Shown here piece after piece: positions 35,650 through 56,418 of a stretch of 64,000 nucleotides of DNA. The position numbers and the translations under genes are program-made. This DNA is from Gemmatimonas sp. (GTDB lineage: Bacteria; Pseudomonadota; Alphaproteobacteria; SMXQ01): assembly GCA_050260515.1 (NCBI GenBank), contig JBLNCI010000040.1, forward strand, positions 48,331 through 112,330, in the 5' to 3' direction. Within the stretch, counting starts at the first letter, position 1. Every line of letters starts with the position of its first letter. The notes under the pieces were generated by a model that was not told the origin of the DNA, made no database searches, and saw only the letters and a program-made list of their open reading frames with translations.

Positions 35650-37134
35650 TCAGACCGACTTGCCCCAGCCCTCGATCAGGTGGCCGAACTTCTGGCGGGT
35701 CTCCTTCGCCAGCTCCTTCGAAGGCATGTTGACCTTCGGGAACTGGTCGCGCCAGTGGAACGGACGGCAGGCGTTGATGATCGCGCGCGAGCTGGTGAAG
35801 TCCTTGGTCGCGCGCTGCTCCGGGGTGATGCGCGGATCGAGCGGGGTCGACCACGCATTCTTGACGATGTCGATCGACGTCGCCGGGTCGGAGCGGCTCA
35901 CCGTGGCCCACATCAGCTCCTCGAGGTTCGAGGGGTCGATGTCGTCGTCCACCACGATCACGTACCGGCCGGCGTAGGCGCCGACGTGGCACTGGCAGGC
36001 GACGTGGCCGGCCTGGGTCGCGTGGCCCGGGTAGCGCTGCTTGATCGAAACCGCGACCAGCATGCGCGCCGTGCCGACTTCGTGGGCCCAGACGTTCGTG
36101 ATGTCCGGGACGCCCGCGGCCTGGATCGACTGCTTGAGCAGCGCCGAGCGAGCCACCGCGCGGTAGCGGGCGAGCTCATCCGGCGGACGCTGCGGGGGGC
36201 AGCCGAGGATGATCGGGTCGTTGCGATGATAGATCGCCTCGACGTGCATCACCGGCTCCGGACGGGTGTCCGACGCGTAGTAGCCGGTCCACTCTCCGAA
36301 CGGACCCTCGTCCTTGAACTCCTTCGGGTCGATCCAGCCCTCGAGCACGATCTCGGCGTCGGCCGGCATCGGCAGGCCCGTGATCTTGCCCTTCACGCAC
36401 TCCAGCGGCTTGCCGTACAGGCCGCCGAGGATGTCGTACTCGCAGACGCCGTAGGGGACTTCCTGCGACGACAGGATGAACTGCATCGGGTTGCCGCCGA
36501 CGACGATCAGCGCCGGCATCTTCTCGCCGCGCTCCGCGTACTTGTCGCGGTGGATGCGGCCGTGCTTGCCCGGCGAGATGTAGAAGCCGATCGTGTTCTT
36601 GCCCTGGATCATGCAGCGGTAGGTGCCGCAGTTGATCCAGTTCTCGTCCGGATCGCGGGTGACGTTGTAGGAGCCGGTGCCGAGGTAGCGGCCGCCGTCT
36701 TCCTCGTGCCACTTCGGCGTCGGGAAGATCCCGAGGTCGACCTTGTCGCCCGTCAGGATGTTCTCGAAGATCGGGCCCGTCTCGACGATCTTGTGCGGGA
36801 TCGGCTGGTTGTTCGGGTTCCGGTAGACCTTCAGGAACTCCTCCGACAGCTCGAGCCGGCTCAACCCCGCCGGGAAGCCCAGCGTCATGTTGGCGCGCTT
36901 CGCGCTGAAGAAGTTCGTCAGGACCCGGAAGCCCTTCTTCACGCCCGGGATCTCATCGAACAGGCCGCAGGGCGCCGGATCGGTGTGATGGAGCATCTCC
37001 GTCACCATGCCGATCTCGCGTTCCCAGTTGAGCCCGTTGATGTACTTCATCTCGCCGAGCTTGTCCGCCTCGCGGATCCACTCGCGCAGATCCTTGTAGG
37101 CGAACGCGTGTTTGACGTTCGAGTTGTTGCTCAT
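35650..37134 (-). CDS. UbiD-family (prFMN-dependent) reversible aromatic-acid decarboxylase
   Basis: Start MSNNSNVKHAFAYKDLREWI. 494 aa with the UbiD fold and the conserved E-x4-G..E region (EGPFGEWTGYY). The ORF extension to 37287 is discarded. Confidence 0.8.
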   Translation of the reverse strand: MSNNSNVKHAFAYKDLREWIREADKLGEMKYINGLNWEREIGMVTEMLHHTDPAPCGLFDEIPGVKKGFRVLTNFFSAKRANMTLGFPAGLSRLELSEEFLKVYRNPNNQPIPHKIVETGPIFENILTGDKVDLGIFPTPKWHEEDGGRYLGTGSYNVTRDPDENWINCGTYRCMIQGKNTIGFYISPGKHGRIHRDKYAERGEKMPALIVVGGNPMQFILSSQEVPYGVCEYDILGGLYGKPLECVKGKITGLPMPADAEIVLEGWIDPKEFKDEGPFGEWTGYYASDTRPEPVMHVEAIYHRNDPIILGCPPQRPPDELARYRAVARSALLKQSIQAAGVPDITNVWAHEVGTARMLVAVSIKQRYPGHATQAGHVACQCHVGAYAGRYVIVVDDDIDPSNLEELMWATVSRSDPATSIDIVKNAWSTPLDPRITPEQRATKDFTSSRAIINACRPFHWRDQFPKVNMPSKELAKETRQKFGHLIEGWGKSV

Positions 37135-37183
37135 TGTTCCTCGCTGTCCTCCTTGACGTACGCGTAGGTTGGTTAGAAGACGC

Positions 37184-37666
37184 TCACGCCGAGCGGGCGG
37201 CCCGTGAGGGTTCCCGCGCGGCGGATTCGGGTTCGGCGCTGGCGTTGAGGTTCTCGAGCATGCGCCCGAGGGCGACGCGCAGCGCATCGGTCTCGCGCGG
37301 CGTCATGCCGGCGAGAAGGATTTTTTCGTAGTCGCGGAAATAGACCGGGCGCTCCTTCTGCGCGAGCGCGCGGCCCTTCGGCGTGATGAAGACGATGACC
37401 TCGCGGGCGTCCTGGCCGCTGCGGGCGCGGCGCACGAGACCGCGCGCCTCCATGCGCGAGACGACGCGCGACAGCGTCGACAGCTCGATGCCGGTGAGGC
37501 GGGCGAGCTCGCCCACCGGGCGGCCGTCCTTCGCCATCAGGCGATAGAGGACGCGCACGCCCTCGAACTTGAGGCCGTAGGCGCGCGCATGGCGGTTGAC
37601 CGAAGCCATCACCTGGCTGGCGATCTGATGCATGAGAAAGGGTACCGACCAGTCGGCGTTCGCCAT
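37184..37666 (-). CDS. MarR-family transcriptional regulator
   Basis: Start MANADWSVPF. It has a winged helix ELARLTGIELSTLSRVVSRMEARGLVRR. It lies immediately upstream of the UbiD gene on the same strand. Confidence 0.8.
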   Translation of the reverse strand: MANADWSVPFLMHQIASQVMASVNRHARAYGLKFEGVRVLYRLMAKDGRPVGELARLTGIELSTLSRVVSRMEARGLVRRARSGQDAREVIVFITPKGRALAQKERPVYFRDYEKILLAGMTPRETDALRVALGRMLENLNASAEPESAAREPSRAARSA

Positions 37667-37740
37667 GCCCGGCGCCTCCCCGCGCCGTGGCGGACAGCAA
37701 GCGACCCCATGGGGCCGCAGGTCCGCCGGGCGCGAACGAT

Positions 37741-37792
37741 GCCCCAAACAATTTGCAGGTGCAAGTAATTTGGGGCGCAAGATTCTTGCGCC
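37741..37792. promoter_or_regulatory. Two adjacent inverted repeats between tauE-like stop and marR start (operator and/or terminator candidates)
   Basis: GCCCCAAACAATTTGCAGGTGCAAGTAATTTGGGGC contains the inner near-palindrome TTGCAG-GTGCAA. It is followed by GGCGCAAGATTCTTGCGCC. Confidence 0.4.
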
Positions 37793-37825: not shown

Positions 37826-38590
37826 CTAGAACAGGCCCTGACGCACCATATTGAGGCCGATCAGCACCAGCGCGATCAGCAGCACCTTGCGGAAGGTGTC
37901 CTCGTTGATGCGGCCGCGGATCCACTGGCCGGCGAGCATGCCGACGAACACCGGGATGCAGGCGATCGCCGTCGGCACGACGTGTTCGGCGCGCAGCACG
38001 CCCTCGGCGACGTAGGCGATGCCGGTCGGGATGATGCCGAGGAGATAGACGAGGGCGATGGTGCCGATGAACTCGTCCTTCGGCACCCGGAGCGCGACCA
38101 TGAACATGATGACGGCGGGGCCGATGAACAGCGTGAGCCCGCCGAAGAAGCCGCCGGTCACGCCGACCAGGATCGACAGCCACAGCGCGTGCTGCTTCGG
38201 CACCGCGAGCTTCGGCTGCAGCAGGTTGACGAGCGAGAAGCCCGCGACGGCCGCGCCGACGACGATCTGCAGCGACTGCGAGTCGATGCCGACCAGCGTC
38301 TTGGCGCCGAGCCATGTCCCGGCGATCACCGCCACCATCATCGGCCAGAAGTTGCGCAGCGCGACGAGGAAGTAGCCGCCCTGGAACGTCTGCCAGACGT
38401 TCATGATCAGCACCGGCCCGTACATCAATGCGACCGCTTCGCGGATCGGCACCGAGGTGTAGAGCAGCGGCAGCGCGATCATCGGCAGGCCGACGCCGAG
38501 CACGCCCTTGGCGAGACCGCCGGCGAACAGCGCGGCGGCAGCGGCGGCGAGGAGAAGAGGTGAGCTGTCGATCATCAGGGTGGGCGTCAT
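37826..38590 (-). CDS. TauE/SafE family sulfite/anion exporter-like membrane protein
   Basis: About 254 aa and polytopic, with a GxxxG-rich internal duplication (LGVGLPMIALPLL... / GVTGGFFGGLTLFIGPAVIMF) typical of the TSUP/TauE family. Confidence 0.7.
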   Translation of the reverse strand: MTPTLMIDSSPLLLAAAAAALFAGGLAKGVLGVGLPMIALPLLYTSVPIREAVALMYGPVLIMNVWQTFQGGYFLVALRNFWPMMVAVIAGTWLGAKTLVGIDSQSLQIVVGAAVAGFSLVNLLQPKLAVPKQHALWLSILVGVTGGFFGGLTLFIGPAVIMFMVALRVPKDEFIGTIALVYLLGIIPTGIAYVAEGVLRAEHVVPTAIACIPVFVGMLAGQWIRGRINEDTFRKVLLIALVLIGLNMVRQGLF

Positions 38591-38679: not shown

Positions 38680-39888
38680 ATGATCGTCATTGCCGGAGCG
38701 GGGCACGCGGGCGGGCGCGCCGCCGAGGCGATGCGCCAGGCGGGCTACACCGGACGCATCGTGCTGGTCGGCGACGAGTCGCATCCGCCGTACGAGCGCC
38801 CGCCGCTGTCGAAGGAGATGCTGGCGACCGAGTACGCGCCGGAGAAAGCCTATCTCGCGCCGCTCGCCGCCTGGGCCGAGAAGACGATCGAGCTTCGCCT
38901 CGACGCCAGGGTCGAAGGCCTCGACCGCGCGTCGCATCGCGTCCATCTCGCCGGCGGCGAGGCGCTGCCCTACGACCGGCTGCTGATCGCGACCGGCGGC
39001 CGCGTGCGCACGCTGTCGGCGCCGGGTGCCGCACTCGCCGGCGTCCACTACATCCGCTCGATCAAGGATTCGCTCGCTCTCAAGGCCGAGCTCAAGCCGG
39101 GCGGCCGCGTCGTCGTCATCGGCGGCGGCTTCATCGGCCTCGAGGCCGCGGCGGCCGCCATCAAGCTCGGCTGCAAGGCGACGGTAATCGAGGCCCAGGC
39201 CGAGCTCCTCAACCGTGTCATGGACCCGTTGATGGGCCGCTGGTTCGAGCAGCTCCATCGCGCCAACGGCGTCGAGGTGCTGAAGGGCGTCACCATCGAG
39301 CGCCTCGAGGGTCGCGACCGCGTCGAGGCGGTGGTGCTGACGTCGGGCGATCGCATCGACGCCGACGCCGTCGTGATCGGCATCGGCATCATCCCGAACG
39401 TGGAGATCGCCGCGAACGCCGGCATCGAGGTCGGCAACGGCGTCAAGGTCGACGAGTTCGGCGTCAGCTCCGATCCGGACGTGTTCGCCGCCGGGGACGT
39501 CGCGTTCCACCTCAATCCGATCCTCGGCCGTCACGTGCGGCTCGAGTCGTGGGCCAATGCCCAGAACGGCGGCATCGCCGTCGCGCGCAACATGGTTGCC
39601 GAACCGGCGCCGTACGTCGACGTGCCGTGGTTCTGGACCGATCAATTCGGCGCCAACATCCAGATCGCCGGCGCGCCGCAGGCCTGGGACCGCATCATCG
39701 TGCGCGGCAAGGCGGAATCCGGCAAGTTCATCGCGTTCGCGCTGCATGGAGCCAAGGTGGTCGGCGGCACCGCGGTGAACCTCGGCCGCGACATGCGTTT
39801 CATTAAGTCGCTGATCCAGTCGGGTAAGGACGTGCGCGACGAGGACCTCGCGAACGAGGCCGTGCAGATGCGAGCCTTGGCGGGGTGA
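38680..39888 (+). CDS. FAD-dependent NAD(P)H:ferredoxin reductase (putidaredoxin/rubredoxin-reductase class)
   Basis: MIVIAGAGHAGGRAAEAMRQAG (FAD GxGxxG), VVVIGGGFIGLEAAAA (NAD GxGxxG), and a C-terminal dimerisation domain. A GTG at 38665 is an alternative start. Confidence 0.85.
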   Translation: MIVIAGAGHAGGRAAEAMRQAGYTGRIVLVGDESHPPYERPPLSKEMLATEYAPEKAYLAPLAAWAEKTIELRLDARVEGLDRASHRVHLAGGEALPYDRLLIATGGRVRTLSAPGAALAGVHYIRSIKDSLALKAELKPGGRVVVIGGGFIGLEAAAAAIKLGCKATVIEAQAELLNRVMDPLMGRWFEQLHRANGVEVLKGVTIERLEGRDRVEAVVLTSGDRIDADAVVIGIGIIPNVEIAANAGIEVGNGVKVDEFGVSSDPDVFAAGDVAFHLNPILGRHVRLESWANAQNGGIAVARNMVAEPAPYVDVPWFWTDQFGANIQIAGAPQAWDRIIVRGKAESGKFIAFALHGAKVVGGTAVNLGRDMRFIKSLIQSGKDVRDEDLANEAVQMRALAG

Positions 39889-39959: not shown

Positions 39960-41840
39960 ATGGCGACGAAAGTGAAGGCCAACAAGCCGGCCGCGAAGTC
40001 CGGAGCGAAGACGCGCAAGGCGGCGAAGTCGGACGGGATCGACGCCCCGGCGAACATCGGCAATCCGCGCTTGGGCTGGGCGTCCGACGCGATCGCCGAG
40101 CTGTTGGCGCGCATGGACTTCCCCTACATCAGCCTGGTGCCGGGCGCGTCGTATCGCGGCTTCCACGATTCGATCGTCAACTACCTCGGCAACAAGAACC
40201 CGCGCATGCTCGTGAATCTGCACGAGGAGCATGCGGTCGCCGTCGCCCACGGCTGGGCCAAGGTCACCGACAAGCCGCTGCCGGTGGCGCTGCACTCGAA
40301 CGTCGGCCTGTTGCACGGCACCATGGCGATCTTCAACGCGTGGTGCGACCGCGTGCCGATGCTGATCTTCGGCGCCAACGGCCCGATCGACGCCAACGAG
40401 CGCCGGCCGTGGATCGACTGGATCCACTCGACGTCCGACATGGGCGCGCAGATCCGCGACTACACGAAGTGGGACGACACGCCGATGAGCGTGCCGGCCG
40501 CCTTCGAGTCGATCCTGCGCGGCTACCAGCAGACCTGCAGCCAGCCGTGCGCGCCGGTCTACATCTGCCTCGACGCCGGCCTCCAGGAGAAGAAGCTCGA
40601 CGAGCAGCCGGACTTCCCCGACCTCGCCCGCTACCAGCCGGCCGAGCCGCCGGCCCCGTCGGAGGAGCAGGTGGCGCGCGCCGCCGACTGGCTGCTCAAG
40701 GCCAAGCGGCCGCTGATCATGATGGGCCGCGGCTCGCGCGATGGCGCGGACTGGACGCACCGCGTGAAGCTCGCCGAGCAGCTCGGCGCGGCGGTGATCA
40801 CCGACATGCACAATCCGGCGGTGTTCCCGACCAACCATCCGAACCACCTCATCGAGCCGCGCTTCCGCCCGTCGCCGCGCTCGGCGGAGCTGGTCAAGCA
40901 GGCCGACGTCATCCTGATCCTCGACTGGCTCGATCCGGCGGGCTTCTTCGCCCAGACCCTGAAGCTGGGGCTCGCGCAGGCGCCGGAGGCGAAGATCATC
41001 AACGTCTCGCTCGACTCCTACCTGCATCGCGGCTGGAGCAAGGATCATCAGGCGCTGCCGGCCGCCGACCTGCCGGTGCTGTCGGGGACCGACGCGTTCG
41101 TCGCCGCGCTGCTCGAAGAGGTCATCAGCCGGACCAAAGGGAAAGCCAAGACGCTCGCGCCGTTCAAGCTGCCGCCGGCGCCGAAGGGTGCCGCCCGCGC
41201 GCTCGACAAGTCGCGCTCGCGCGGCGGCATGAACCTGCGCGAACTCGCCGACGCGACGGTGGCGGCGCTCGAAGGGTACGACGTCAGCTACATCAAGCTG
41301 CCGCTCGGCTGGCCGGGCGACGCGATCTCGTTCAATCACCCGCTCGATTACCTGGGCCACGACGGCGGCGGCGGCGTGGGCTCGGGCCCCGGGATCTCGG
41401 TCGGCTGCGCGCTCGCGCTCAAGGACTCGGGCCGCCTGCCGGTCGCGCTCCTGGGCGACGGCGACTTCATGATGGGCAGCAACGCGCTGTGGACCGCGGC
41501 CCACAACAAGATCCCGTTCCTCATGGTGGTGTGCAACAACCGCTCGTACTTCAACGACGAGACCCACCAGGAGCGGATGGCCGTCGTCCGCGGCCGCCCG
41601 CCCGAGAACAAGTGGATCGGCCAGCGTCTCGACGAACCGGCGATCGACCTCGCGGCGATCGCCCGCGCCCAGGGCCTCGAGGCCGAGGGCCCGGTGTGGG
41701 ACGCCGCGGGCCTGCGCAAGGCGCTCGAGCGCGGCATCGAGGTGGTGGAGAACGGCGGGACCTACGTCATCGACGCCCGCATCGACACCGGCTACGCCGA
41801 GCCGATGATGACGCACCCCGGCAACCGCAAGGCGGGGTAG
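39960..41840 (+). CDS. Thiamine-diphosphate-dependent enzyme (benzoylformate decarboxylase / acetolactate synthase superfamily)
   Basis: 626 aa. It has Lys/Ala-rich N-terminal ~30 aa and a ThDP-binding motif GDGDFMMGSNALWTAAHNKIPFLMVVCNN. Confidence 0.8.
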   Translation: MATKVKANKPAAKSGAKTRKAAKSDGIDAPANIGNPRLGWASDAIAELLARMDFPYISLVPGASYRGFHDSIVNYLGNKNPRMLVNLHEEHAVAVAHGWAKVTDKPLPVALHSNVGLLHGTMAIFNAWCDRVPMLIFGANGPIDANERRPWIDWIHSTSDMGAQIRDYTKWDDTPMSVPAAFESILRGYQQTCSQPCAPVYICLDAGLQEKKLDEQPDFPDLARYQPAEPPAPSEEQVARAADWLLKAKRPLIMMGRGSRDGADWTHRVKLAEQLGAAVITDMHNPAVFPTNHPNHLIEPRFRPSPRSAELVKQADVILILDWLDPAGFFAQTLKLGLAQAPEAKIINVSLDSYLHRGWSKDHQALPAADLPVLSGTDAFVAALLEEVISRTKGKAKTLAPFKLPPAPKGAARALDKSRSRGGMNLRELADATVAALEGYDVSYIKLPLGWPGDAISFNHPLDYLGHDGGGGVGSGPGISVGCALALKDSGRLPVALLGDGDFMMGSNALWTAAHNKIPFLMVVCNNRSYFNDETHQERMAVVRGRPPENKWIGQRLDEPAIDLAAIARAQGLEAEGPVWDAAGLRKALERGIEVVENGGTYVIDARIDTGYAEPMMTHPGNRKAG

Positions 41841-41893: not shown

Positions 41894-41925
41894 AAGGGGC
41901 GCTCCGACGGAGCGCCCCTTTTGTT
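41894..41925 (+). terminator. Rho-independent terminator after the ThDP enzyme gene
   Basis: AAGGGGCGCTCCGACGGAGCGCCCCTT followed by TTGTTCTT. Confidence 0.75.
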
Positions 41926-42052: not shown

Positions 42053-42182
42053 AAAAGTGTCCCAACTGTCCCAGGTGTCCCAAATGGCCAGTGTGGGACA
42101 GTGGGACACTTGGGGGTTTCTGGCGGAAATCCGCGGGGTTTGCTGTCCCACGCCGGCGCGCGGCGGCGAACGCCGTGGGACA
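42053..42182. repeat. Composite palindromic repeat element, copy 2
   Basis: AAAAGTGTCCCAACTGTCCCAGGTGTCCCAAATGGCCAGTGTGGGACAGTGGGACA, then after about 35 nt TGTCCCACGCCGG...CGCCGTGGGACA. It differs from copy 1 by 3 substitutions in the 56-nt core. Confidence 0.8.
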
Positions 42183-42259
42183 CTCGCACGACCGGAGACG
42201 CGGAGACGAAAAGGCCCCCGACAAGCGCGCTATGGCGAAAGGAAAACCAGGTAGGGAGG

Positions 42260-42640
42260 CTAGGCGACCTGGATCGGGATCGCGCGGCGCTGCTGCTTGA
42301 TGCGGTTGTTGGCGTCGACGTAGACGAGCTTCGGCTGGTACGAGGCCAGCTCGCTCTCGTCGTAGCGCGCGTAGGCGGCGATGATGACGATATCGCCGAC
42401 CGCGCCCTTGCGCGCCGCGCCGCCGTTGAGCGAGATCGTGCCCGAGCCCGCCTGGGCGCGGATCGCGTAGGTCGTGAACCGCTCGCCGTTGTTCACGTTG
42501 TAGATGTCGATCTGCTGGTACTCGCGGATGTCCGCGGCCTTGAGCAGGTCCTCGTCGATCGCGCACGAGCCTTCGTACTCGAGCTCGCATTGCGTGATCG
42601 TGACGCGGTGCAGCTTGGACTGGAGCATCGTACGTTGCAT
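42260..42640 (-). CDS. panD: Aspartate 1-decarboxylase proenzyme
   Basis: 126 aa. Contains [33 protein letters not shown] with the self-processing G-S site. The long ORF extension to 42988 is discarded. Confidence 0.9.
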
Positions 42641-42996
42641 GGCGACCCCCTCCGACGGGGTCCAAACGGCCGGTACTTGTAAGGTATCGGCGGCCGTTTG
42701 TCTCCCGGTTAACGTGCGCGCCCGGAACATGGCTCCCGCGAGGCCCGCAACCGGCCTCGGCGTTGACAAAAGCCGCGCCGGAATAGGAAAATACGCAACC
42801 CTTAGATATTTACCCTTTCGCTGAAATCCAGCCCCGGAGGTAAAAACTCCGGGAGCGCGGCATCCGGCGGCAGCAAGGGGCCGGTGCAGACCTCCCAAGG
42901 CGCTCCAGTGCGGGCATACCAGCGGGCAGGCGCGGCGGCGGCCGGGGCGTTTCGCGTGCCGGTCCGGACAACCCTCGACAAGGAACAAGAAAGCAC

Positions 42997-49222: not shown

Positions 49223-49284
49223 CCGGCCCCGCGCCGTGTGCTACACGAGCGCGGGATGAATCGAAGCACCGGAGACAACCGGCG

Positions 49285-50031
49285 ATGACGGGATCCGCGC
49301 CGCGGGTGGACGCGGCCGCCTACGACAAGCGCCTCGCGATCATCGTTCCCTACCGCGACCGCCAGGAGCACGTGCAGATGTTCCTGCCGCACATCGTCGC
49401 GTACTTCGCCCGCGACAAGCTCGATCGCTACATCGATTACGCCATCCACATCGTCGAGCAGGCGCCGGGCAAGCCGTTCAATCGCGGCCTGTTGCTGAAC
49501 GCGGGCTTCCAGATCGCCCGCGACTCCTGCGATTACGTGTGCTTCCACGACGTCGACTACCTGCCGCTATGGGCGGACTACAGCTATCCGGCGTCGCCCA
49601 CCCGCCTGATCTGGCACGGCCTCACGATGAAGGAGGACTACGGCGGCTTTTTCGGGGGCGTCGTGCTGTTCCCCAACGAGCACTTCGCGAAGGTCAACGG
49701 CTACAGCAACGGCTACTGGGGATGGGGCGCCGAAGATACGGAACTCGGGCTCCGGTGCGACATCAGCGGTCTGCCGCGCGCGAACCGCGACGGCACCTAC
49801 CGCGCGCTGCCACACCCGAACGCCGGCAACAATCCCGACCGGACGCTGACGCCGGAGGCGGTCGCCAACCGGCAACGATTCAGGGAACGCCGGGACCGGC
49901 TGGCCGAGCTGATGACCGGAGACGGCTTGTCGAGCGCGGAGTTCCGTATCGCGGAGACGACCGAGGTCTCGACCGCCGGCCTGCCGGAGCCCCCGAGAGG
50001 TCCGATCCGCCGCTATCTCGTCGAGGTGTAG
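49285..50031 (+). CDS. Galactosyltransferase-like glycosyltransferase (beta-1,4-GalT / GT7-like fold)
   Basis: 248 aa with a GGAGA RBS. Contains LAIIVPYRDRQEHVQMFL...FNRGLLLNAGF...FHDVDYLP...WGWGAEDTEL, matching the conserved blocks of the beta4GalT N/C domains. The ORF extension from 48244 is an artefact. Confidence 0.6.
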   Translation: MTGSAPRVDAAAYDKRLAIIVPYRDRQEHVQMFLPHIVAYFARDKLDRYIDYAIHIVEQAPGKPFNRGLLLNAGFQIARDSCDYVCFHDVDYLPLWADYSYPASPTRLIWHGLTMKEDYGGFFGGVVLFPNEHFAKVNGYSNGYWGWGAEDTELGLRCDISGLPRANRDGTYRALPHPNAGNNPDRTLTPEAVANRQRFRERRDRLAELMTGDGLSSAEFRIAETTEVSTAGLPEPPRGPIRRYLVEV

Positions 50032-50050: not shown

Positions 50051-51274
50051 TCAGGCGCGGCGGCTGCGGCTCTCGATGTGGGGCAGGAACGCCGCGAGCA
50101 GCCCGATCGCCGGCAGGTACGAGCAGACGTCGTAGACGAACTCGATGCTGGTCGCGTCGGCGAGCCAGCCCAGCACGGCGGCGCCGATGCCGCCCATGCC
50201 GAAGGCGAGGCCGAAGAACAGCCCCGAGATCGCGCCGACCTTTCCCGGCACCAGCTCCTGGGCGTAGACCACCATGGTCGAGAACGCCGAGGCCAGGATC
50301 AGGCCGACGGGCACGCTCAGCACCGCGGTCCAGAACAGGTTGGCGTAGGGGAGGGCGAGCGTGAACGGCAGCGCGCCCAGGATCGAGAACCAGATCACGT
50401 GCTTGCGACCGAAGCGGTCGCCGATCGGCCCGCCGGCGATGGTCCCGACCGCGACGGCCGCGAGGAACACGAACAGGTAGAGCTGGGACGCCTGGACGCT
50501 GACCCCGAACTTGTGGATCAGGTAGAACGTGTAGTAGCTCGACAGGCTCGCGAGATAGAAGAACTTCGAGAACATCAGCGCGATCAGGATCGCGAGCGCA
50601 CCGGCCACGCGTCCGCGCGGCAGCGTCGGGGCCTCGACGGCCGCCGGCCGTTTCGCGGCGGCGCGGCGATGGGCGCGGTACCACGTCCCGACGTGCCACA
50701 GGATGACGATGCCGAGCAGCGCGAGCGCCGAGAACCACGACACGCTCGCCTGTCCGTCGGCGAACACGACGAACGCGGCGAGCAGCGGACCGATGGCCGA
50801 GCCGAGATTGCCGCCGACCTGGAACACCGACTGCGCGAAGCCGTGGCGTCCGCCGGAGGCGAGCCGGGCGACGCGCGAGGATTCGGGATGGAAGATCGAC
50901 GAGCCGATCCCCATCATCGCCGCCGCGGCGAGCAGCACGTGGTAGCCCGGCGCGAACGCGAGCAGCAGCAGCCCCGCCATGGTGAACGTCATGCCGACGG
51001 CGAGCGCGTAGCTTTTCGGACGATGGTCGGTGTAGAGCCCGACGAGCGGCTGCAGCACCGACGCGGTGAGCTGGTAGGTGAGGGTCAGGAGTCCGATCTG
51101 GCCGAAGTCGAGCGCGAAGCTCTGCTTCAGCATCGGGTAGATCGCCGGCAGCAGCGCCTGCAGCGAATCGTTCAGCAGGTGGCAGAAGCTGATCGCGAAC
51201 AGGATTCGGACGACGGTGCCGTCGCTCCGCGTCGCCGCCGCTGTCTTGCCGCTGTCGTGGGTGATGTCCGTCAC
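50051..51274 (-). CDS. MFS transporter
   Basis: GTG start (VTDITHDSGK...). 407 aa with 12 predicted TM helices and an MFS signature region GLYTDHRPKSYALAVG. Confidence 0.7.
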   Translation of the reverse strand: MTDITHDSGKTAAATRSDGTVVRILFAISFCHLLNDSLQALLPAIYPMLKQSFALDFGQIGLLTLTYQLTASVLQPLVGLYTDHRPKSYALAVGMTFTMAGLLLLAFAPGYHVLLAAAAMMGIGSSIFHPESSRVARLASGGRHGFAQSVFQVGGNLGSAIGPLLAAFVVFADGQASVSWFSALALLGIVILWHVGTWYRAHRRAAAKRPAAVEAPTLPRGRVAGALAILIALMFSKFFYLASLSSYYTFYLIHKFGVSVQASQLYLFVFLAAVAVGTIAGGPIGDRFGRKHVIWFSILGALPFTLALPYANLFWTAVLSVPVGLILASAFSTMVVYAQELVPGKVGAISGLFFGLAFGMGGIGAAVLGWLADATSIEFVYDVCSYLPAIGLLAAFLPHIESRSRRA

Positions 51275-51442
51275 GCGTCGCTCCGGCCGAAACGAAACCC
51301 GCGCGGGGTTTCGCCGCGCGGGGGTGACGTTATAGGGGAAACGGGCCGCGTGCGGCAGTGACGAAACCCGCGCCGCGCGCAACTCTGCTATCCGCGACCC
51401 TGGCATCCGCTGCGGCCGCGCTCCGCCCGGCCGCAGGGGCCG

Positions 51443-51952
51443 TCAGAACGGGTAGACGATGGTCGCCGGGACGATCTCGGAGTCGTAGATGCAGAGCCGC
51501 TGGCGCAGCTTGAGCTGCTTGCCCTCGTAGACGAACTCATCGAGGTAGCGGCCGACGCTGAGGATTCGGGTGACGTCGGTCGGGATCGTCTCGACGACCA
51601 TGTAGTTGGCCTCGGCGCGGATCACGCCCTCGTTCACGCCGAGGACGCGGATGTTCGAGATGAAGTGCCGCAGGTAGCGCGGCCGCGCCACGGTCGTCTT
51701 GGTGATGGCGACGGTGCGGTCGACGAGACCGCCGCGGCCCTCGGCGAAGATCGTCGCCAGCGGCAGGTTCTGGTCCCAGTTCTCGCGGGCGATGACCTTG
51801 TAGACCGCATCCTCGGTGAAGAAGTCCGGCCACAGCATGATGTCGCCGTCGTCGATGCACGCGGCGTAGGCGCTGTTGAAGTCGTAGATGTCGGCGCGGA
51901 GAGCGCGCGCGTCGAGCGGCTTCGTCATCGTCTTGGTGTCCATGATGTCCAT
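51443..51952 (-). CDS. Rieske-type ring-hydroxylating dioxygenase beta subunit
   Basis: 169 aa, MDIMDTKTMTKPLD.... It has a SnoaL-like small-subunit fold and sits immediately downstream of the alpha subunit. Confidence 0.75.
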   Translation of the reverse strand: MDIMDTKTMTKPLDARALRADIYDFNSAYAACIDDGDIMLWPDFFTEDAVYKVIARENWDQNLPLATIFAEGRGGLVDRTVAITKTTVARPRYLRHFISNIRVLGVNEGVIRAEANYMVVETIPTDVTRILSVGRYLDEFVYEGKQLKLRQRLCIYDSEIVPATIVYPF

Positions 51953-51978: not shown

Positions 51979-53238
51979 TTACAGGCCCATGATCTTGCGA
52001 TAGCCGCTGTAGAAGCCGCGGATCATCGACTCGGTCACCATGTGGTCGGTGTCCTCGAAGTCGCGTCCGCCCATCTCCACGACGGCTTTTGCCTCGGGGT
52101 AGTTGGCGACGCCGAACTGCGTCGCCTCCATGACCTCGCTGTCGTCGGCGGAGACGAAGCCGGCCGGACCCATCAGGTTGGCCTGGCGCAGGCGCTTCAT
52201 GGTCATCTCCTCCGACTCGTCGGCGTAGCCGAAGAACGTCCAGTGGAGCTCGAACTCCTGCGGACTCACGGTCTGGATCTGGCGCATCGCGAGCGTGTTC
52301 GACTGCTGCTGGATGATCAGGTTCGGCCAGATCGTCTGCATGACGACGGTGGCGTCGCCCGGGAACTCCTTCTCGGGCTGCAGCATGTTGGGGTTGGCGA
52401 GCTTGAGATGCGCGATGTTCTGGCGGATGTCCTCGGTGCCCTCGTCGTGCTTCTGCTCGCCGCGCTGCGAGATCTGCACACCGTGCAGCCCGGTGCCATC
52501 GAGCTGCACCTTCGACGGGTTGTCGGCGCGGAACAGGCTGAACGAGACCAGGAACACGTGCATCAGCGACGCGTGGTACGGGTCCTTGATGTTCTCGAAC
52601 ATCAGCTTCCAGTTCGAGCGCAGGCGCTGACGCTCGTAGCCGAGGACCTTCAGCGGACGGCCGTTGAACACCCGGTTCACCCAGTGGAGCATCTTCGGCC
52701 CGAGGTACTCCTCGAACGACGGCATGCCGTGATCGAACGAGGCGAAGATCGTGCCGTTGTAGGTCGCGACCTTCAGCTCCTGCAGCCGATGCTCCTTCAT
52801 GTCGAAGTCCTTCGGCATGCCGCCGTGCTTCTTGAGCCCGCGGCGGAACGGGATGGCGATGGTCTCGCCCTTCAGGTTGTAGGTCCACTGGTGGTACGGG
52901 CAGATGAACTCGGTCTTGCCCTTGCCGTGGGTCTCGTAACAGAACTGCACGCCGCGGTGGGCGCAGCGGTTCGCGAACACGCGCACCTGGCCGGTCTCGT
53001 CGCGGGTGTAGATGACCGGCTTGGAGCCGATCTTGGTGGCGCGGAAATCGCCGGTGTTCGGGATCTCGCACTCGAAGCCGATGAAGCTGTAGGCGGAGCC
53101 GCCGAACACGACCTCCTGCTCGCGCGCGTAGATCTCGGGCGCGGAGTACACCCAGTAGGGGACGCGGGTGTATCCCTCCTCAGGCCAGGTGAAGTTCAGC
53201 GGCGAATTCTTCAGTTGGGTGGCCATGGCTCTTCCCAT
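51979..53238 (-). CDS. Rieske non-haem iron oxygenase alpha subunit
   Basis: 419 aa. The Rieske motif is CAHRGVQFCYETHGKGKTEFICPYHQW. The mononuclear Fe motif is DPYHASLMH (D-x2-H-x4-H) in the catalytic domain. Confidence 0.85.
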   Translation of the reverse strand: MGRAMATQLKNSPLNFTWPEEGYTRVPYWVYSAPEIYAREQEVVFGGSAYSFIGFECEIPNTGDFRATKIGSKPVIYTRDETGQVRVFANRCAHRGVQFCYETHGKGKTEFICPYHQWTYNLKGETIAIPFRRGLKKHGGMPKDFDMKEHRLQELKVATYNGTIFASFDHGMPSFEEYLGPKMLHWVNRVFNGRPLKVLGYERQRLRSNWKLMFENIKDPYHASLMHVFLVSFSLFRADNPSKVQLDGTGLHGVQISQRGEQKHDEGTEDIRQNIAHLKLANPNMLQPEKEFPGDATVVMQTIWPNLIIQQQSNTLAMRQIQTVSPQEFELHWTFFGYADESEEMTMKRLRQANLMGPAGFVSADDSEVMEATQFGVANYPEAKAVVEMGGRDFEDTDHMVTESMIRGFYSGYRKIMGL

Positions 53239-53291
53239 GCGAACGAGTGGGCGGTGCAGCTCGGGCCCGTTTCGACCCGGGGCGAGTCCGT

Positions 53292-53317
53292 CTCACATAT
53301 GGGACTCACATATGGGA
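53292..53317. promoter_or_regulatory. Perfect tandem 13-bp direct repeat CTCACATATGGGA x2 in the promoter region of the Rieske oxygenase operon
   Basis: It lies in the locally AT-richer 218-bp gap upstream of the alpha-subunit start (53238). Each unit contains the palindrome CATATG. Confidence 0.4.
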
Positions 53318-53456
53318 ACGGACAGGCACTATGCCGCCGCGAACGGCCGTTTGCTTTGATCTAGGGCATGGCGGTCGCGGCCGGCGAATAAAGGATAGAT
53401 ATCAAAGTATTTTGCCGGGTTCAAGGGGCCTTCGGTCGCGACCGACCCCGGATGCG

Positions 53457-55403
53457 TCAGGATTTCCGCGCCCCGCGCACCGCCGCCGCGTTCCGCCGCG
53501 CGACCGAGGCGATGCTGAGCGCCGCGAGCGCGATGCCGACCGGGTTGCTCCACAATGTCGGGGCGACGAAGAACAGCCCCGACGCGGCAAGGAGCAGCCG
53601 TTCCCACCACAGGACGCCGAGCCGCGGGTGGCCCTCGCACGCGGCGGCGAGCAGCACGAAGCCGATTGCGGCGGTGACGAAGTCGAGCGCGATCCGCCAC
53701 GGCTCGCCGATCATCAGAAGCGTGGTCGAGATCGCGAACGCGAACGGCACGACGAAGGCGGCCAGCGCGAGCCGCACCGCCGTCATGCTGATGTGCAGCG
53801 GGTTCGTGCCGTGACCGGCGATGGTCGCCGCGGCGTAGGACGCGGCGTGGGTCGGTGGCGTGATCGCGCTCATCGCCGCGAAGCACAGCAGGAACATGTG
53901 CGCGGCGATGTCGGGAAGTCCGACGTTCTGCAAGATCGGGCTCATCAGCGCCGCGCCGATGATGTAGGCGGCCGGGATCGGCATGCCCATGCCGAGGATG
54001 ACGGTCAGCGCGGCGGCTATCGCCAGCGCCCAGAGCATGCTGTCGCCCGTGAAGCCGTACGCGAACGCGGCGAACTTGAGGCCGAAGCCCGTCAGGGTCA
54101 GGCCGGCGACGATGAGCCCGGCGGCGGCACACGCGGCGGTGATCGGCATCATGCGCAGCACGGTGTCGGCGCACGCCCGCAGCAGCGACAGGGCGCCGAA
54201 CCGGGTCTCTCGGCGGGCGCTCGCCATCGCGAGTGCCAGTCCGGTTGCCGCGATCGCGACGTAGGAGGCATCGAACCCGAGCACGACACCGACGATGAGC
54301 GCGACCGTCGGCACCAGGAAGATGCCGCCCTTGCGCAGGTTGGGGCCGAGCTTCGGGATCTCGTCCTCGCGCAGGCGCGGGACGCCGCGGTTCACCGAGT
54401 GGAAGTGCACCTGCGAGTACACGGCGATGTAGTAGAGGATCGCCGGAAGCACGGCGGCGAGCGCTACCTCGCGGTAGGGGATGTCGGCGTACTCGGCCAT
54501 GATGAAGGCGGCGGAGCCCATCACCGGCGGCATGATCGCGCCGCCGGCGGAGGCGGTGAGCTCGATGGCGGCGGCGAGGTTCGCGCCGTAGCCGTGGCGC
54601 CGCATCGCCGGTATCGAGATCGCGCCCGTCGTGACCACGTCGAGCGTCGTCGAGCCCGAGATCGCCCCGTAGAGCCCCGAGGAGATCACCGCGATCTTCG
54701 CGGGCGCGCCGCGGCGGCGGCCGGCGATCAGCGCCGCGAGATCGACGAAGAACGCTCCGCTCCGGGCGAAGCGCATGATCTCGGCGAACAGCACGAACAG
54801 GAACGCGTACTTCGCCGCGGTCTGCAGCGGTAGTCCCAGCAACCCCTCGTCGGTGAGCGCCTCGCCGTCGATGAAGTTGCGGAACACGATCCGCGGGTGA
54901 CCGAGGATTCCGCCGATGTGATGGCCGAGAAGGACGTAGACGATCACGACGACGGTTAGCAGCGCGAAGGCGAGCCCGACGGCGCGTCGGGTCATCTCGA
55001 TGGTCAGCAACACCAGCGCCGAGCCGGCGAGGATGTCCCATGGCGACATCAGGTCGAGGAAGGGAATCCGGTCCTCGACGCGCGCGGCGGCGAGCATGAA
55101 ATAAGCACCGATGACGACGGCGGCGACGGCGAGGGCGCAGTCGTACCACGGTACCCGTCGCGGGTCGGCGCGGGATGACGGCGCGATCATCAGGAAGGAG
55201 AGCGCGAGCGACCCGGTGAGGAAGCTGGTCGCGACGCGCCACAGGCTCACGGTGGGCAGCAGCGCCGCGGCGATGACGTAGACGGTGAGGGCGGCCGAGC
55301 CGAGCGCGAAGGTCCACGCCGGCCAGCCTTCGGGCGCGCGGCGCGCAGCCATCGAGAACCACGTCTCGACACGGAACAGCCGGGCGGGGAATGCGATCGG
55401 CAT
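53457..55403 (-). CDS. TRAP transporter fused permease (DctQ-DctM fusion, TAXI-type architecture)
   Basis: 648 aa and highly hydrophobic with about 16-18 TM helices. The small N-terminal 4-TM module is fused to a 12-TM DctM-like module. No DctP/TAXI-type secreted binding protein is adjacent. Confidence 0.7.
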   Translation of the reverse strand: MPIAFPARLFRVETWFSMAARRAPEGWPAWTFALGSAALTVYVIAAALLPTVSLWRVATSFLTGSLALSFLMIAPSSRADPRRVPWYDCALAVAAVVIGAYFMLAAARVEDRIPFLDLMSPWDILAGSALVLLTIEMTRRAVGLAFALLTVVVIVYVLLGHHIGGILGHPRIVFRNFIDGEALTDEGLLGLPLQTAAKYAFLFVLFAEIMRFARSGAFFVDLAALIAGRRRGAPAKIAVISSGLYGAISGSTTLDVVTTGAISIPAMRRHGYGANLAAAIELTASAGGAIMPPVMGSAAFIMAEYADIPYREVALAAVLPAILYYIAVYSQVHFHSVNRGVPRLREDEIPKLGPNLRKGGIFLVPTVALIVGVVLGFDASYVAIAATGLALAMASARRETRFGALSLLRACADTVLRMMPITAACAAAGLIVAGLTLTGFGLKFAAFAYGFTGDSMLWALAIAAALTVILGMGMPIPAAYIIGAALMSPILQNVGLPDIAAHMFLLCFAAMSAITPPTHAASYAAATIAGHGTNPLHISMTAVRLALAAFVVPFAFAISTTLLMIGEPWRIALDFVTAAIGFVLLAAACEGHPRLGVLWWERLLLAASGLFFVAPTLWSNPVGIALAALSIASVARRNAAAVRGARKS

Positions 55404-55419
55404 GTCGCCCGCCCCGCCG

Positions 55420-56418
55420 TCAGATCCGGCTCTGCTCGAGCGTCGAGGCGGCGAACAGGTCGGCGATCGTCAGCGGGCGCGGCGAAAGTCCCTGGCTGTG
55501 GTGGTAGCGGAGGAAGGCCTCGATCGTGACGCGGTTGGCCTGGACGCCGTACGGCCAGAAGTCGCGGCCGAACAGCGCCGCCGCCTCGTTCGCCATCTCC
55601 TCGACCCACGGCAGCGCGACCGGCGGAATGTTGATGCTGCGCAGCTCGTCGAGGGCCAGGTCCTTCGCCTTGTCGAACGCCTTGTAGATGCTGGCCGGCA
55701 GCCACGGGTACTGCTGGACCTTCGATTCGCGGACGCCGACCAGGTGCATGATCGGGAAGATGCGCGTCTTCGCGTAGTACGCCTTTTCGGCCGACACGAA
55801 GTCCTCGAACAGCCGGGCGATGTTTGGCGTCCGCTTGAGATAGACGCTCGGCGGCCGCGGCGCGATGACGGCATCGAGCTCGCCCGAGGCGAGCATTTCG
55901 GACAGCGTCCGGTCCGACGGGATCAGTTGCAGCTCGACTCCGGCCGGGAGCTTCAGCGCCACCTTCTCGGTGCGGCCCGCCTGCTCCAGCCCGCCGGTGC
56001 GCCAGCGGATGTCCGAGGGCTTCACGGCGTACTCGTCCTCGAGCACGCCCCGCATCCAGACGACGGCGGTCACCTGATACTCGGGAACGCCGACCAGCTT
56101 GCCCTTGAGGTCCTGCGGCTTCGCGATGCCGCGGTCGGTGCGGACGTAGATGCCGGAATGGCGGAACTTGCGGCCGGGGAAGATCGGGATCGCGACGTAC
56201 GGGCACTCGCCGCGGGCGCGCAGCGCGACGTAGTTGGAGAACGACAGCTCGGCGACGTCGAACTCCTCGTGGTGCAGCGCGCGGTGGAACATCTCCTCGG
56301 GCTCGAGGTCGAAGTACGTCGGATCGCAGCCTTCGATGGTCACGCGGCCGTCGAGCAGCGGGCGGGTGCGGTCGTAGTTCGAGAAGGCGACGGTCAGCGG
56401 GACGCGATGCACGGGCAC
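55420..56418 (-). CDS. Cytoplasmic NMT1/THI5-fold protein, 4,5-dihydroxyphthalate decarboxylase (PhtD)-like
   Basis: GTG start at VPVHRVPLTVAFSNYDRTRPLLDGRV. About 332 aa with no signal peptide. The 5' part of the listed 422-aa ORF is Arg/Ser-rich antisense junk overlapping ctaA. The family assignment is from recalled motif similarity and not verified. Confidence 0.4.
   Translation of the reverse strand: MPVHRVPLTVAFSNYDRTRPLLDGRVTIEGCDPTYFDLEPEEMFHRALHHEEFDVAELSFSNYVALRARGECPYVAIPIFPGRKFRHSGIYVRTDRGIAKPQDLKGKLVGVPEYQVTAVVWMRGVLEDEYAVKPSDIRWRTGGLEQAGRTEKVALKLPAGVELQLIPSDRTLSEMLASGELDAVIAPRPPSVYLKRTPNIARLFEDFVSAEKAYYAKTRIFPIMHLVGVRESKVQQYPWLPASIYKAFDKAKDLALDELRSINIPPVALPWVEEMANEAAALFGRDFWPYGVQANRVTIEAFLRYHHSQGLSPRPLTIADLFAASTLEQSRI

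Follow-up and report, generated by a model that had tools for sequence, protein, structure and literature searches.

A putative modular catabolic island for carboxylated aromatic acids, with a bicupin dioxygenase and a DapA-like aldolase at its core

When Rieske oxygenase genes lie scattered among genes for decarboxylases, transporters and unrelated proteins, do they belong to one catabolic system, and if so, which genes form its centre and what chemistry do they serve? This question was raised by a 64,000-nucleotide stretch of contig JBLNCI010000040.1 (assembly GCA_050260515.1, labelled Gemmatimonas sp., positions 48,331 to 112,330), hereafter called the window, in which such genes are spread over positions 35650–56418. 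An earlier note on this DNA had described them as a complete, Rieske-oxygenase-centred set for an aromatic or N-heterocyclic acid. Our analysis favours, with a probability of roughly 0.6, the view that these genes form a modular catabolic island which serves carboxylated aromatic acids and has an uncharacterised lower pathway at its centre. The conserved core, which recurs across phyla, consists of a bicupin protein and a DapA-like aldolase, together with an enzyme of the OCD/mu-crystallin family and proteins of AhpD/CMD fold. The Rieske oxygenase, the transporters and the decarboxylases are lineage-variable additions to this core.

Genes were called from frame-specific profiles of third-position G+C content (GC3) and a listing of open reading frames (ORFs), followed by Pfam and NCBIfam scans. 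The window has about 70% G+C and shadow frames crowd its raw ORF lists; third-position GC leaves one gene per stretch. All genes named in the earlier note were recovered by these analyses, at the coordinates given below. The core lies on the plus strand in a run that begins with a Rieske-type [2Fe-2S] ferredoxin (Fd, 42997–43305; Pfam Rieske, 73 bits). It continues with two paralogous proteins of predicted AhpD/CMD fold (protein 1, 43328–43912, and protein 2, 43909–44460, with a 4-bp overlap), an NAD(P)-dependent enzyme of the OCD/mu-crystallin family (44499–45506; OCD_Mu_crystall, PF02423, 153 bits) and the bicupin, of gentisate/salicylate 1,2-dioxygenase type by fold comparison (45532–46671). 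The last gene encodes the DapA-like class I Schiff-base aldolase of the DHDPS family (46786–47694; Pfam DHDPS, 255 bits). Intergenic gaps in this unit are 22, −4, 38, 25 and 114 bp, a spacing which suggests that the genes from Fd to DHDPS form one operon. A second unit, also on the plus strand, encodes the NAD(P)H:ferredoxin reductase (FdR) and a thiamine diphosphate (ThDP)-dependent enzyme, and has a strong hairpin at its end. On the minus strand runs a series composed of the PhtD-like and TRAP permease genes, a 218-bp gap, and the genes for the oxygenase alpha and beta subunits and an MFS transporter. The earlier note had missed the OCD-family gene in the middle of the Fd-to-DHDPS unit, as well as a TauE/SafE gene, panD and three unrelated genes at 47818–50031.

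With a bicupin profile, 449 loci were found in 185,579 species-representative genomes; the best 80, all from metagenome-assembled genomes (MAGs), were inspected. All ORFs of the fetched loci (numbered with the prefix L) were translated and then searched with the window proteins. In a close clade of about 20 MAGs, with bicupins 68–84% identical to that of the window, the whole gene order was kept: UbiD-MarR-TauE-FdR-(ThDP)-Fd-CMD-CMD-OCD-bicupin-DHDPS ... beta-alpha-TRAP-TAXI-(PhtD-like)-CtaA. Identities between the window and one member, L010, went from 87% for UbiD, the best-conserved protein of the set, and 83% for the bicupin down to 53% for MarR. Among MAGs whose alpha subunit is 63–75% identical to that of the window (L002/L003, L005, L006/L007), the same families were found together, in rearranged order. 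The set looks dispersed because of genes specific to this genome: panD, the 47818–50031 block, the MFS gene and a neighbouring GST gene have a counterpart in no related locus, of the close clade or otherwise. Membership of the MFS transporter in the set, as the earlier note had it, is accordingly doubtful. The interval between DHDPS and beta is a variable insertion site. It holds two response-regulator/EAL genes in L002/L003 and a nucleoside transporter gene in L005.

The true test lies in distant loci, for which lineage synteny is no explanation. The sample comprised 37 loci from Binatia, Gammaproteobacteria, Acidobacteria, marine Rhodospirillaceae and one betaproteobacterium, with bicupins 53–58% identical to that of the window and at least 4 kb on both sides; neighbours were counted within 10 kb. 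A DHDPS orthologue was present in 22 of the 37, always adjacent to the bicupin gene and on the same strand. Other neighbours were UbiD (14 loci), OCD and CMD-fold (11 each) and MarR (8), and rarer ones the alpha/beta pair (7), PhtD-like (6) and TRAP/TAXI (4). Gene orders differ: CMD-OCD-bicupin-DHDPS stands by itself in L092 and L093, is preceded by UbiD-MarR in L091 and by beta-alpha-TAXI-PhtD-like in L079, and is followed by PhtD-like-ThDP in L061, whereas L041 reads Fd-CMD-OCD-bicupin-DHDPS-beta-alpha. The set, found assembled in dozens of genomes, thus has a neighbourhood conserved in the close clade and also, though rearranged, in distant phyla; the lack of conserved synteny by which the earlier note would have refuted a functional link is not what was observed. 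The centre of the set has to be moved, since 22 of the 37 distant bicupin loci have the DapA-like gene and only seven the Rieske alpha/beta genes. Further recurrent neighbours in the distant loci (TauD, PhyH, amidase, class V aminotransferase, methyltransferase) were set aside, as they look like lineage synteny of marine Rhodospirillaceae.

One locus joins two of the core genes. On a 3.3-kb metagenomic contig (L099), with the order CMD - OCD::bicupin - DHDPS, a single gene (604–2667) encodes a protein of 687 residues (P0333) that matches the window's OCD-family enzyme in its N-terminal half (41% identity) and the bicupin in its C-terminal half (51–54%). This fusion agrees with the adjacency of the OCD and bicupin genes seen in most loci. 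A second product of fusion type (P0390) matches just the first ~170 residues of the bicupin. A more distant bicupin paralogue was also found, with OCD and an FAA-family hydrolase in place of CMD and DHDPS (L006, 1–2268; L094, 6621–11893). Its hosts are a Rhodovibrionaceae MAG and Cupriavidus necator N-1 (pBB1), where it stands beside Rieske alpha and beta genes. This suggests that two sister versions of the lower pathway exist.

What does the bicupin do? In Foldseek searches its nearest folds were gentisate 1,2-dioxygenase (GDO; 3bu7, 2d40) and salicylate 1,2-dioxygenase (SDO; 2phd), with E-values of 1e-19 to 1e-18 and a TM-score of about 0.65, and quercetinases came next (1e-13). By sequence, it scored only 47–75 bits against solved GDO and SDO proteins and 67.7 bits with the GDO model TIGR02272 (cut-off 442.1); its best NCBIfam model, 5-aminosalicylate dioxygenase MabB, gave merely 82 bits. 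The His triad (H285, H287, H326) is confined to the C-terminal cupin and is invariant across 28 homologues. This cupin aligns to the catalytic N-terminal domain of SDO, so that the catalytic domain lies in the opposite half of the protein. Relative to the SDO of Pseudaminobacter salicylatoxidans (2phd), to which the bicupin is 14–15% identical, the equivalents of the His triad, His162 and Arg83 are conserved, whereas Arg127, Gln108 and Trp104 are changed to Asn, Thr and Phe. In the alignment to 3nst and 3bu7, the Arg127 and Gln108 positions are occupied by the invariant Asn293 (Asn in 28 of 28 homologues) and Thr274. In solved GDO and SDO, Arg127 or its equivalent binds the substrate carboxylate, and Gln108 has a role as well. 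A HMMER scan of 1.84 billion cluster representatives returned just 70 bicupin clusters at E≤1e-30, and the family is therefore small and discrete. Judged from these alignments, the bicupin belongs to a distinct family of putative GDO/SDO-type ring-cleavage dioxygenases, with the 3-His iron site intact.

The DapA-like gene, the commonest neighbour of the bicupin gene, is the last of a catabolic-type operon and has no lysine-biosynthesis context. Its product passes the generic dapA model TIGR00674 (269 versus 206), and its best-scoring model is TIGR02313 ('HpaI-NOT-DapA', 2,4-dihydroxyhept-2-ene-1,7-dioate aldolase), yet below cut-off (305.3 versus 396.7). Residues T44, T45, Y107, Y133, R138 and K161 of Escherichia coli DapA are all kept, and are invariant in an alignment with seven module orthologues; His53 and His56 of the lysine allosteric site are replaced. 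In DapA, Arg138 binds the carboxylate of the C4 aldehyde, aspartate semialdehyde. Its retention fits the release of a C4 aldehyde-acid by the DapA-like enzyme.

The OCD-family enzyme has a GSGHQA dinucleotide-binding motif at residue 135 (Rossmann G-x-G-x-x-A). It falls under the cut-off of every NCBIfam equivalog, the best matches being alanine dehydrogenase, Pyr2C reductase, ketimine reductase and iminosuccinate reductase. To our knowledge, all characterised members of the family act on C=N or C–N bonds of alpha-amino or alpha-imino acids. The role of this enzyme is the weakest point of our proposal, and by analogy the chemistry of its family argues for a nitrogen-bearing intermediate.

CMD-fold proteins 1 and 2, which are 40% identical to each other, had been described as a PcaC-like pair. 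This description stands at the level of the fold and does not at that of the sequence. Neither protein had a Pfam match at E≤1e-3, and PF02627 was reached at sub-threshold scores only (16.5 and 15.0 bits, cut-off 23). The AlphaFold model of protein 1 (pLDDT 92) gave Foldseek TM-scores of 0.75–0.78 (probability 1.00) to the CMD/AhpD/Bmp8 structures 3lvy, 6e8l and 6ohj, at just 15–17% identity, and an all-helical AhpD/CMD fold is confidently predicted for it. The CxxC motif of AhpD-type peroxidases was found in neither sequence; the invariant polar residues of protein 1 include N87, Y89, E90, Q93, R169 and H173. Two copies are the rule in the close clade, and a single copy in distant loci. An unrelated, canonical CMD-family gene (PF02627, 75 bits) was noticed at 63551–63997, where it runs off the window end after a large RP005/Pyr_redox gene.

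Cultured carriers were sought by tblastn of the bicupin against plasmid and chromid records. Homologues were found in Ralstonia solanacearum (55% identity), Paraburkholderia (52–53%), C. necator N-1 (42%) and Rhodococcus (39–41%). The order in R. solanacearum is flavin monooxygenase, flavin reductase, NTF2-like, CMD-like, OCD and bicupin, followed by HpaH (2-oxo-hept-3-ene-1,7-dioate hydratase), HpaI (4-hydroxy-2-oxoheptanedioate aldolase), succinate-semialdehyde dehydrogenase and an aldehyde dehydrogenase. In Paraburkholderia, a VanAB-type oxygenase lies upstream of a module that reads bicupin, DHDPS (annotated hpaI_2), CMD-like and OCD, then porin, MFS, PhtD-like and esterase. The locus of C. 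necator N-1 reads Fd-FAA hydrolase-OCD-bicupin-beta-alpha. The strongest clue to the chemistry comes from Ralstonia, where HpaH, HpaI (a class II aldolase) and succinate-semialdehyde dehydrogenase stand in for the DapA-like gene: this replacement implies that the DapA-like enzyme is a (hydratase-)aldolase acting on a 2-oxo-3-enoate or 4-hydroxy-2-oxo diacid, with release of pyruvate and a C4 aldehyde-acid.

Upstream of this lower pathway, the window encodes an oxygenase system in separate pieces. The alpha subunit (51979–53238, minus strand; Pfam Rieske and Ring_hydroxyl_A) belongs to the NagG/AndAc/TphA2 group and has both iron motifs intact (Rieske C-x-H...C-x-x-H, residues 92–116; D-x-x-H-x4-H, residues 219–227). 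Its database search gave no identical entry, the best match being 94%. Among solved structures, salicylate 5-hydroxylase NagG (7c8z) matches it with 458 bits and terephthalate dioxygenase TphA2 with 330 bits. The NTF2-like beta subunit (51443–51952, minus strand) matches Ring_hydroxyl_B and SnoaL_4, and the glutathione-reductase-type FdR (38680–39888, plus strand) matches Pyr_redox_2 and Reductase_C. The ferredoxin carries C-x-H...C-x-x-H, and its best NCBIfam models, HcaC (114) and AndAb (95), are both under cut-off. FdR adjoins the Fd or ThDP gene across the close clade, and Fd opens the CMD-OCD-bicupin-DHDPS operon there as well as in L041. With their cofactor motifs intact, the four components make up a complete three-component Rieske oxygenase.

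AndA models rank first for the reductase, alpha and beta, and third for the ferredoxin, with scores well under the cut-offs (AndAa 412/650, AndAb 95/150, AndAc 433/750, AndAd 108/230). The AndAaAbAcAd system of Burkholderia cepacia DBO1 thus has the same component architecture, whereas the window has no catechol pathway nearby. Such scores place the oxygenase in the broader NagGH/AndAcAd group and in no named equivalog. The closest alphas from cultured bacteria, those of Azospirillum lipoferum 4B and Tistrella mobilis (50–51% identity), sit in canonical gentisate clusters (FdR, alpha, beta, Fd, gtdA and MFS, with maiA, FAA hydrolase and IclR). Alphas associated with the bicupin module are 54–71% identical to that of the window and 49–58% to these canonical ones, which makes the oxygenase a sister group of the NagG-type enzymes. 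It probably catalyses a similar type of reaction, the hydroxylation or dihydroxylation of an ortho-substituted benzoate.

Three decarboxylase-type enzymes, one regulator and two membrane proteins accompany this system. The UbiD-family decarboxylase, of the prenylated-FMN type (35650–37134, minus strand; Pfam UbiD, UbiD_N, UbiD_C), passes TIGR00148 (284 versus 244.85). Among solved proteins it is closest to 7pda (365 bits over the full length), which is the phenazine-1-carboxylate decarboxylase PhdA (PMC10850782); similarity to it is only moderate, and pyrrole-2-carboxylate decarboxylases come next. The gene of a MarR-family regulator (37184–37666, minus strand; Pfam MarR_2, MarR) lies 61 bp upstream of UbiD, and the pair is retained in the close clade. 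A UbiD orthologue occurs near the bicupin in an Acidobacteria MAG (L051). In L091 and in marine Rhodospirillaceae loci, the genes immediately upstream of the core module are a UbiD-MarR pair that belongs to a different subfamily. Between MarR and the reductase, the close clade encodes throughout a TauE/SafE-family membrane protein (37826–38590, minus strand; Pfam TauE, 106 bits). One weak distant match to it was seen (L081), and its membership in the set is uncertain. The gap between TauE and MarR contains, at 37742–37792, the adjacent inverted repeats CCCCAAA...TTTGGGG and GGCGCAAGA-T-TCTTGCGCC, which may serve as terminator of TauE or as operator for MarR.

The ThDP-dependent enzyme (39960–41840, plus strand), which has three TPP_enzyme domains, is a divergent member of the decarboxylase/lyase type. 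Its best NCBIfam model is PRK08327 (210 bits, cut-off 456), and its PDB scores to benzoylformate decarboxylase and to 2-hydroxyacyl-CoA lyase stay under 80 bits. Sulfoacetaldehyde acetyltransferase (Xsc), a candidate prompted by the TauE neighbour, was rejected (77 bits, cut-off 676). Orthologues adjoin the core module in L037 and in the betaproteobacterial MAG L061. The PhtD-like protein (55420–56418, minus strand), a putative non-oxidative decarboxylase with a periplasmic-binding-protein-like fold, is homologous over its full length to the 4,5-dihydroxyphthalate decarboxylase PhtD/Pht5 (9jp7; 374 bits, E 5e-111, residues 4–329 versus 22–346). Its orthologues adjoin the core module in L052, L054, L060–L063, L079, L080 and Paraburkholderia (L090). 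Independent co-occurrence in other lineages thus justifies the inclusion of UbiD with its MarR, the ThDP enzyme and the PhtD-like protein in the set.

Transport would be ensured by a fused DctQM-type TRAP permease of the TAXI type (53457–55403, minus strand; TIGR02123, 496.5 versus 320.65). It is ~44–47% identical to the permeases of relatives, versus 60–87% for neighbouring genes. In relatives (L002, L005, L016–L021), the gene of the TAXI receptor lies between the permease gene and either the PhtD-like gene or CtaA, which in the window is at 56435–57619 (minus strand). The MFS gene (50051–51406, minus strand; Pfam MFS_1) lies 36 bp downstream of beta.

From the identities, cofactor motifs, linkage and replacement pattern described above, we infer the following catalytic steps and type of substrate. 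The TRAP system would import an aromatic (poly)carboxylate. The decarboxylases would trim it and the Rieske oxygenase hydroxylate it, giving an o-hydroxy-carboxy ring of salicylate/gentisate type, possibly amino-substituted. The bicupin would then cut the ring between the carbon with the carboxyl and the carbon with the hydroxyl group, to give a linear 2-oxo-C7-dicarboxylate. GDO/SDO-type cleavage of a C7 o-hydroxybenzoate yields such a linear 2-oxo-C7 diacid, and the product of SDO from salicylate is 2-oxohepta-3,5-dienedioate, the kind of 2-oxo-3-enoate that a hydratase-aldolase could split. A ring with a para-hydroxyl would give a 2,4-diketone, needing a hydrolase and not an aldolase, which fits the FAA-hydrolase variant. 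The OCD-family and CMD-fold proteins would adjust the labile product, maybe by imine or enone reduction and isomerisation. Finally, the DapA-like enzyme would hydrate and split the 2-oxo-3-enoate into pyruvate and a C4 aldehyde-acid, which may be succinic semialdehyde, 4-oxobutenoate or, if the ring was aminated, aspartate semialdehyde.

By analogy, the set would work like a gentisate/salicylate-like ring fission joined to an HpaH/HpaI-like lower step, and would not be a new category of system. In the homoprotocatechuate lower pathway, HpaH and HpaI give pyruvate and succinic semialdehyde, and the Ralstonia module uses HpaH, HpaI and succinate-semialdehyde dehydrogenase. The window differs from that pathway by having no HpaD, HpaE, HpaF or HpaG homologues, and a cupin, not the extradiol enzyme HpaD, would cleave the ring. 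Full-text literature searches for the gene combination returned nothing relevant and no matching characterised pathway was found. The description of the set as functionally linked, non-textbook and devoted to an aromatic acid is supported. A more specific proposal, which we put forward tentatively and as a whole, is that the CMD-OCD-bicupin-DapA-like module, present in several phyla of uncultured bacteria and in R. solanacearum and Paraburkholderia, may be an undescribed central ring-cleavage route. It would open an amino- or hydroxy-salicylate-type ring, the OCD-family enzyme would trap an imine or enone, and the DapA paralogue would reverse lysine-biosynthesis chemistry to give pyruvate and aspartate or succinate semialdehyde. 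In the same proposal, lineage-specific funnels (Rieske, PhtD-like, UbiD, ThDP) would feed poly-carboxylated aromatics into the module.

Several findings weigh against the catabolic-island reading. The enzymes of the set are without characterised close homologues. The bicupin has no equivalent of SDO Arg127, and the assumption of an o-hydroxy-carboxylate substrate may therefore be wrong. For an OCD-family enzyme, a ring-fission product free of nitrogen would be a substrate without precedent. Nine or ten Binatia loci hold the bicupin without any other gene of the set, and inspection covered the best 80 of the 449 bicupin loci. The UbiD beside the module in many distant loci is of a different subfamily (130–150 bits), a link at the family level only, and the OCD::bicupin fusion could be an assembly or frameshift artefact. 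Nor can the pathway be called complete, as it had been: the window contains no gene for the TAXI (NMT1_3) receptor, which relatives encode beside the TRAP permease, no aldehyde dehydrogenase was found in it, and a UbiX/flavoprotein gene was not found among its scanned ORFs and may be encoded elsewhere in the genome. The PhtD-like protein was considered as the missing receptor and rejected, in view of its strong homology to a cytoplasmic decarboxylase and an upstream in-frame extension that is not signal-peptide-like.

The same genes could be read in other ways. The region could encode a divergent version of the classical salicylate-to-gentisate pathway (nagAaGHAb-nagIKL of Ralstonia sp. U2, a layout also found on p2 of A. 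lipoferum 4B and pTM1 of T. mobilis), with a salicylate 5-hydroxylase, a GDO and unusual enzymes handling maleylpyruvate. Such clusters share with the window a three-component oxygenase (alpha ~50% identical), a bicupin of the GDO superfamily and a transporter, and their common logic is to hydroxylate, to cleave beside the carboxyl carbon and to release pyruvate. The alpha score to NagG, the position of the closest cultured alphas within canonical clusters with maiA and FAA hydrolase, and the fact that module-associated alphas are barely closer to one another than to canonical ones all speak for this pathway, as do the JGI labels of homologues ('salicylate 5-hydroxylase', 'gentisate 1,2-dioxygenase') and the FAA hydrolase beside OCD and bicupin in C. 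necator N-1. However, the bicupin is far under the GDO model (68 bits versus 442) and remote from solved GDO/SDO proteins (47–75 bits), and it stands apart as a family of its own, in which the iron site is in the opposite, C-terminal cupin and Asn replaces the carboxylate-binding Arg. Maleylpyruvate isomerase and fumarylpyruvate hydrolase are absent from the region, which has OCD, two CMD-fold proteins and the DapA-like enzyme instead, and adds UbiD, the PhtD-like protein, the ThDP enzyme and TRAP rather than MFS uptake. Maleylpyruvate, a 2,4-diketone, would need prior reduction before any retro-aldol enzyme could act; all four oxygenase components are under their NCBIfam equivalog cut-offs, and the module is widespread without a Rieske oxygenase. 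As a full explanation the canonical pathway was thus rejected for the bicupin score, the key residues and the missing isomerase and hydrolase, and a divergent form of it we regard as unlikely. Still less credible, and in our opinion very improbable, is a phthalate-isomer pathway in which a TphA2-like dioxygenase and the PhtD-like enzyme would produce protocatechuate, degraded elsewhere, the Fd-to-DHDPS operon being unrelated. It could draw on the 374 bits of the PhtD-like protein to 4,5-dihydroxyphthalate decarboxylase, the 330 bits of alpha to TphA2, and the carriage of carboxylates, including dicarboxylates, by TRAP systems in general. Against this, neither a cis-dihydrodiol dehydrogenase nor a protocatechuate dioxygenase was found in the window by the Pfam and NCBIfam scans, on which grounds phthalate and terephthalate pathways were rejected, and a phthalate dioxygenase is likewise missing from the context of the PhtD-like gene. 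The oxygenase's own ferredoxin heads the CMD-OCD-bicupin-DHDPS operon, and PhtD-like genes lie directly beside the bicupin module in several unrelated lineages. The substrate of the PhtD-like enzyme is probably another hydroxy-dicarboxy aromatic.

Nitrogen in the substrate is an alternative of another kind, improbable in our view on present evidence. The substrate would then be an N-heteroaromatic or amino-aromatic carboxylate (dipicolinate, hydroxypicolinate, phenazine-1-carboxylate, or an aminosalicylate or anthranilate derivative); the OCD-family enzyme would reduce an alpha-imino acid fission product, such as the 2-imino acid from a 3-aminosalicylate-type ring, and the DapA-like enzyme would release pyruvate and aspartate semialdehyde. 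This would accord with the C=N/C–N chemistry of the OCD family, with the whole DapA active site present in the DapA-like enzyme, and with an OCD-dioxygenase fusion, which would suit the channelling of an imine prone to cyclise. The closest solved relatives of UbiD, which act on phenazine-1-carboxylate and then pyrrole-2-carboxylate, point the same way, as do an oxygenase as similar to AndAc anthranilate dioxygenase as to NagG and the place of MabB at the top of the bicupin's NCBIfam list, at 82 bits only. Many loci, however, have bicupin and DapA-like genes without OCD; the succinate-semialdehyde dehydrogenase that follows the aldolase in Ralstonia points to a nitrogen-free C4 product, and deaminase and amidase are absent from the window. 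For dipicolinate itself, DipD, the key oxygenase of the dip system, was reportedly described in 2022 as dissimilar to known oxygenases. The dip cluster of Alcaligenes faecalis JQ135 is controlled by a GntR/FadR repressor, DipR, with GWATAC boxes (PMC11472048, which leaves the Dip protein families unspecified), and no repressor of this type was seen in the region; on these two grounds, the set is probably not the dip system. Phenazine degradation was rejected too, since a paper on that subject (PMC4626857) mentions none of the module families and the window has no phenazine-related genes. Finally, the genes could form no functional unit and be neighbours merely through the conserved chromosome order of a lineage: conservation in the close clade extends to housekeeping genes next to the set (CtaA, nitrite/sulfite reductase), and five unrelated genes interrupt the set in the window. 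But the interrupting genes are missing from every relative, OCD and bicupin are fused in one gene, and the families recur in other orders and contexts, in other classes and phyla and on replicons of Ralstonia, Paraburkholderia and Cupriavidus. This co-occurrence across phyla already contradicts chance neighbourhood, which is hardly credible. The catabolic island with its bicupin and DapA-like core is the reading we retain.

Ring-cleavage pathways for aromatics are regarded as well catalogued. If our reading holds, they would gain a further route, a lower pathway that combines a distinct GDO-like family with an OCD-family enzyme and a DapA paralogue and that present annotation conceals under labels such as 'gentisate 1,2-dioxygenase', 'ornithine cyclodeaminase', '4-hydroxy-tetrahydrodipicolinate synthase' and 'hypothetical'. 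Its distribution, with 449 loci among species-representative genomes, the best 80 being MAGs from soil and aquatic lineages, means that knowledge of the substrate would improve the reading of aromatic and humic carbon turnover from metagenomes, and would also assign functions to OCD and AhpD/CMD subfamilies. The presence of the module in the plant pathogen R. solanacearum and in insect-gut Paraburkholderia makes it genetically testable.

Non-coding elements were inspected around the transcription units. The hairpin after FdR-ThDP (41894–41920) is terminator-like, with a 12-bp stem including 9 GC pairs and T-rich tails, and is a consensus match only. A candidate sigma-70-like promoter (TTGACA-18-GAAAAT, 10 of 12 matches) lies upstream of the Fd-to-DHDPS operon at 42763–42792, on the plus strand. 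A candidate operator (53284–53323) is located in the 218-bp stretch that precedes alpha and consists of a tandem CTCACATATGGGA, present twice and bracketed by inverted GTCCGT/ACGGAC; this motif was not found in the related loci. A search for an operator motif common to the intergenic regions of the three transcription units found only GC-rich chance 9-mers to be shared.

The genes that interrupt the set in the window are panD (42260–42640, minus strand), a protein of no assigned family (47818–48510, minus strand), a PG-binding protein (48527–49222, plus strand) and a GT7-like glycosyltransferase (49285–50031, plus strand). The remaining window is housekeeping (gcvT, gcvP, ATP synthase F0, SMC, CcrM-like methylase, DciA, RNase HII, ETF-QO, tRNA-Gln), and the set is therefore chromosomal. 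CMD-fold protein 1 is 100% identical to an NCBI MAG protein, ACM30I_15060, labelled 'Gemmatimonas sp.'. This bin label looks wrong, the syntenic relatives being all labelled Alphaproteobacteria or Rhodospirillaceae. The gene content of the window is alphaproteobacterial-looking, with a CcrM-like methylase carrying a RAMA domain, duplicated ATP synthase b/b' and DciA. A glycine riboswitch aptamer (239–340, 68 bits) lies upstream of gcvT/gcvP, an ordinary arrangement.

A short repeat element is present in two copies, at 20937–21075 and 42053–42190; the second has the ThDP terminator on one side and the 3' end of panD, which no related locus contains, on the other, and the motif of the element was found in none of the fetched loci. 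The ~55-bp core, AAAAGTGTCCCAACTGTCCCAnGTGTCCCAAAnGnCCAGTGTGGGACAGTGGGACA, is nearly identical in the two copies; in it, three direct units of TGTCCCA are followed by two inverted ones, TGGGACA. About 35 bp after the core comes a TGTCCCAC...GTGGGACA pair, and GTGTCCCA occurs 8 times in the window, versus 1.0 expected.

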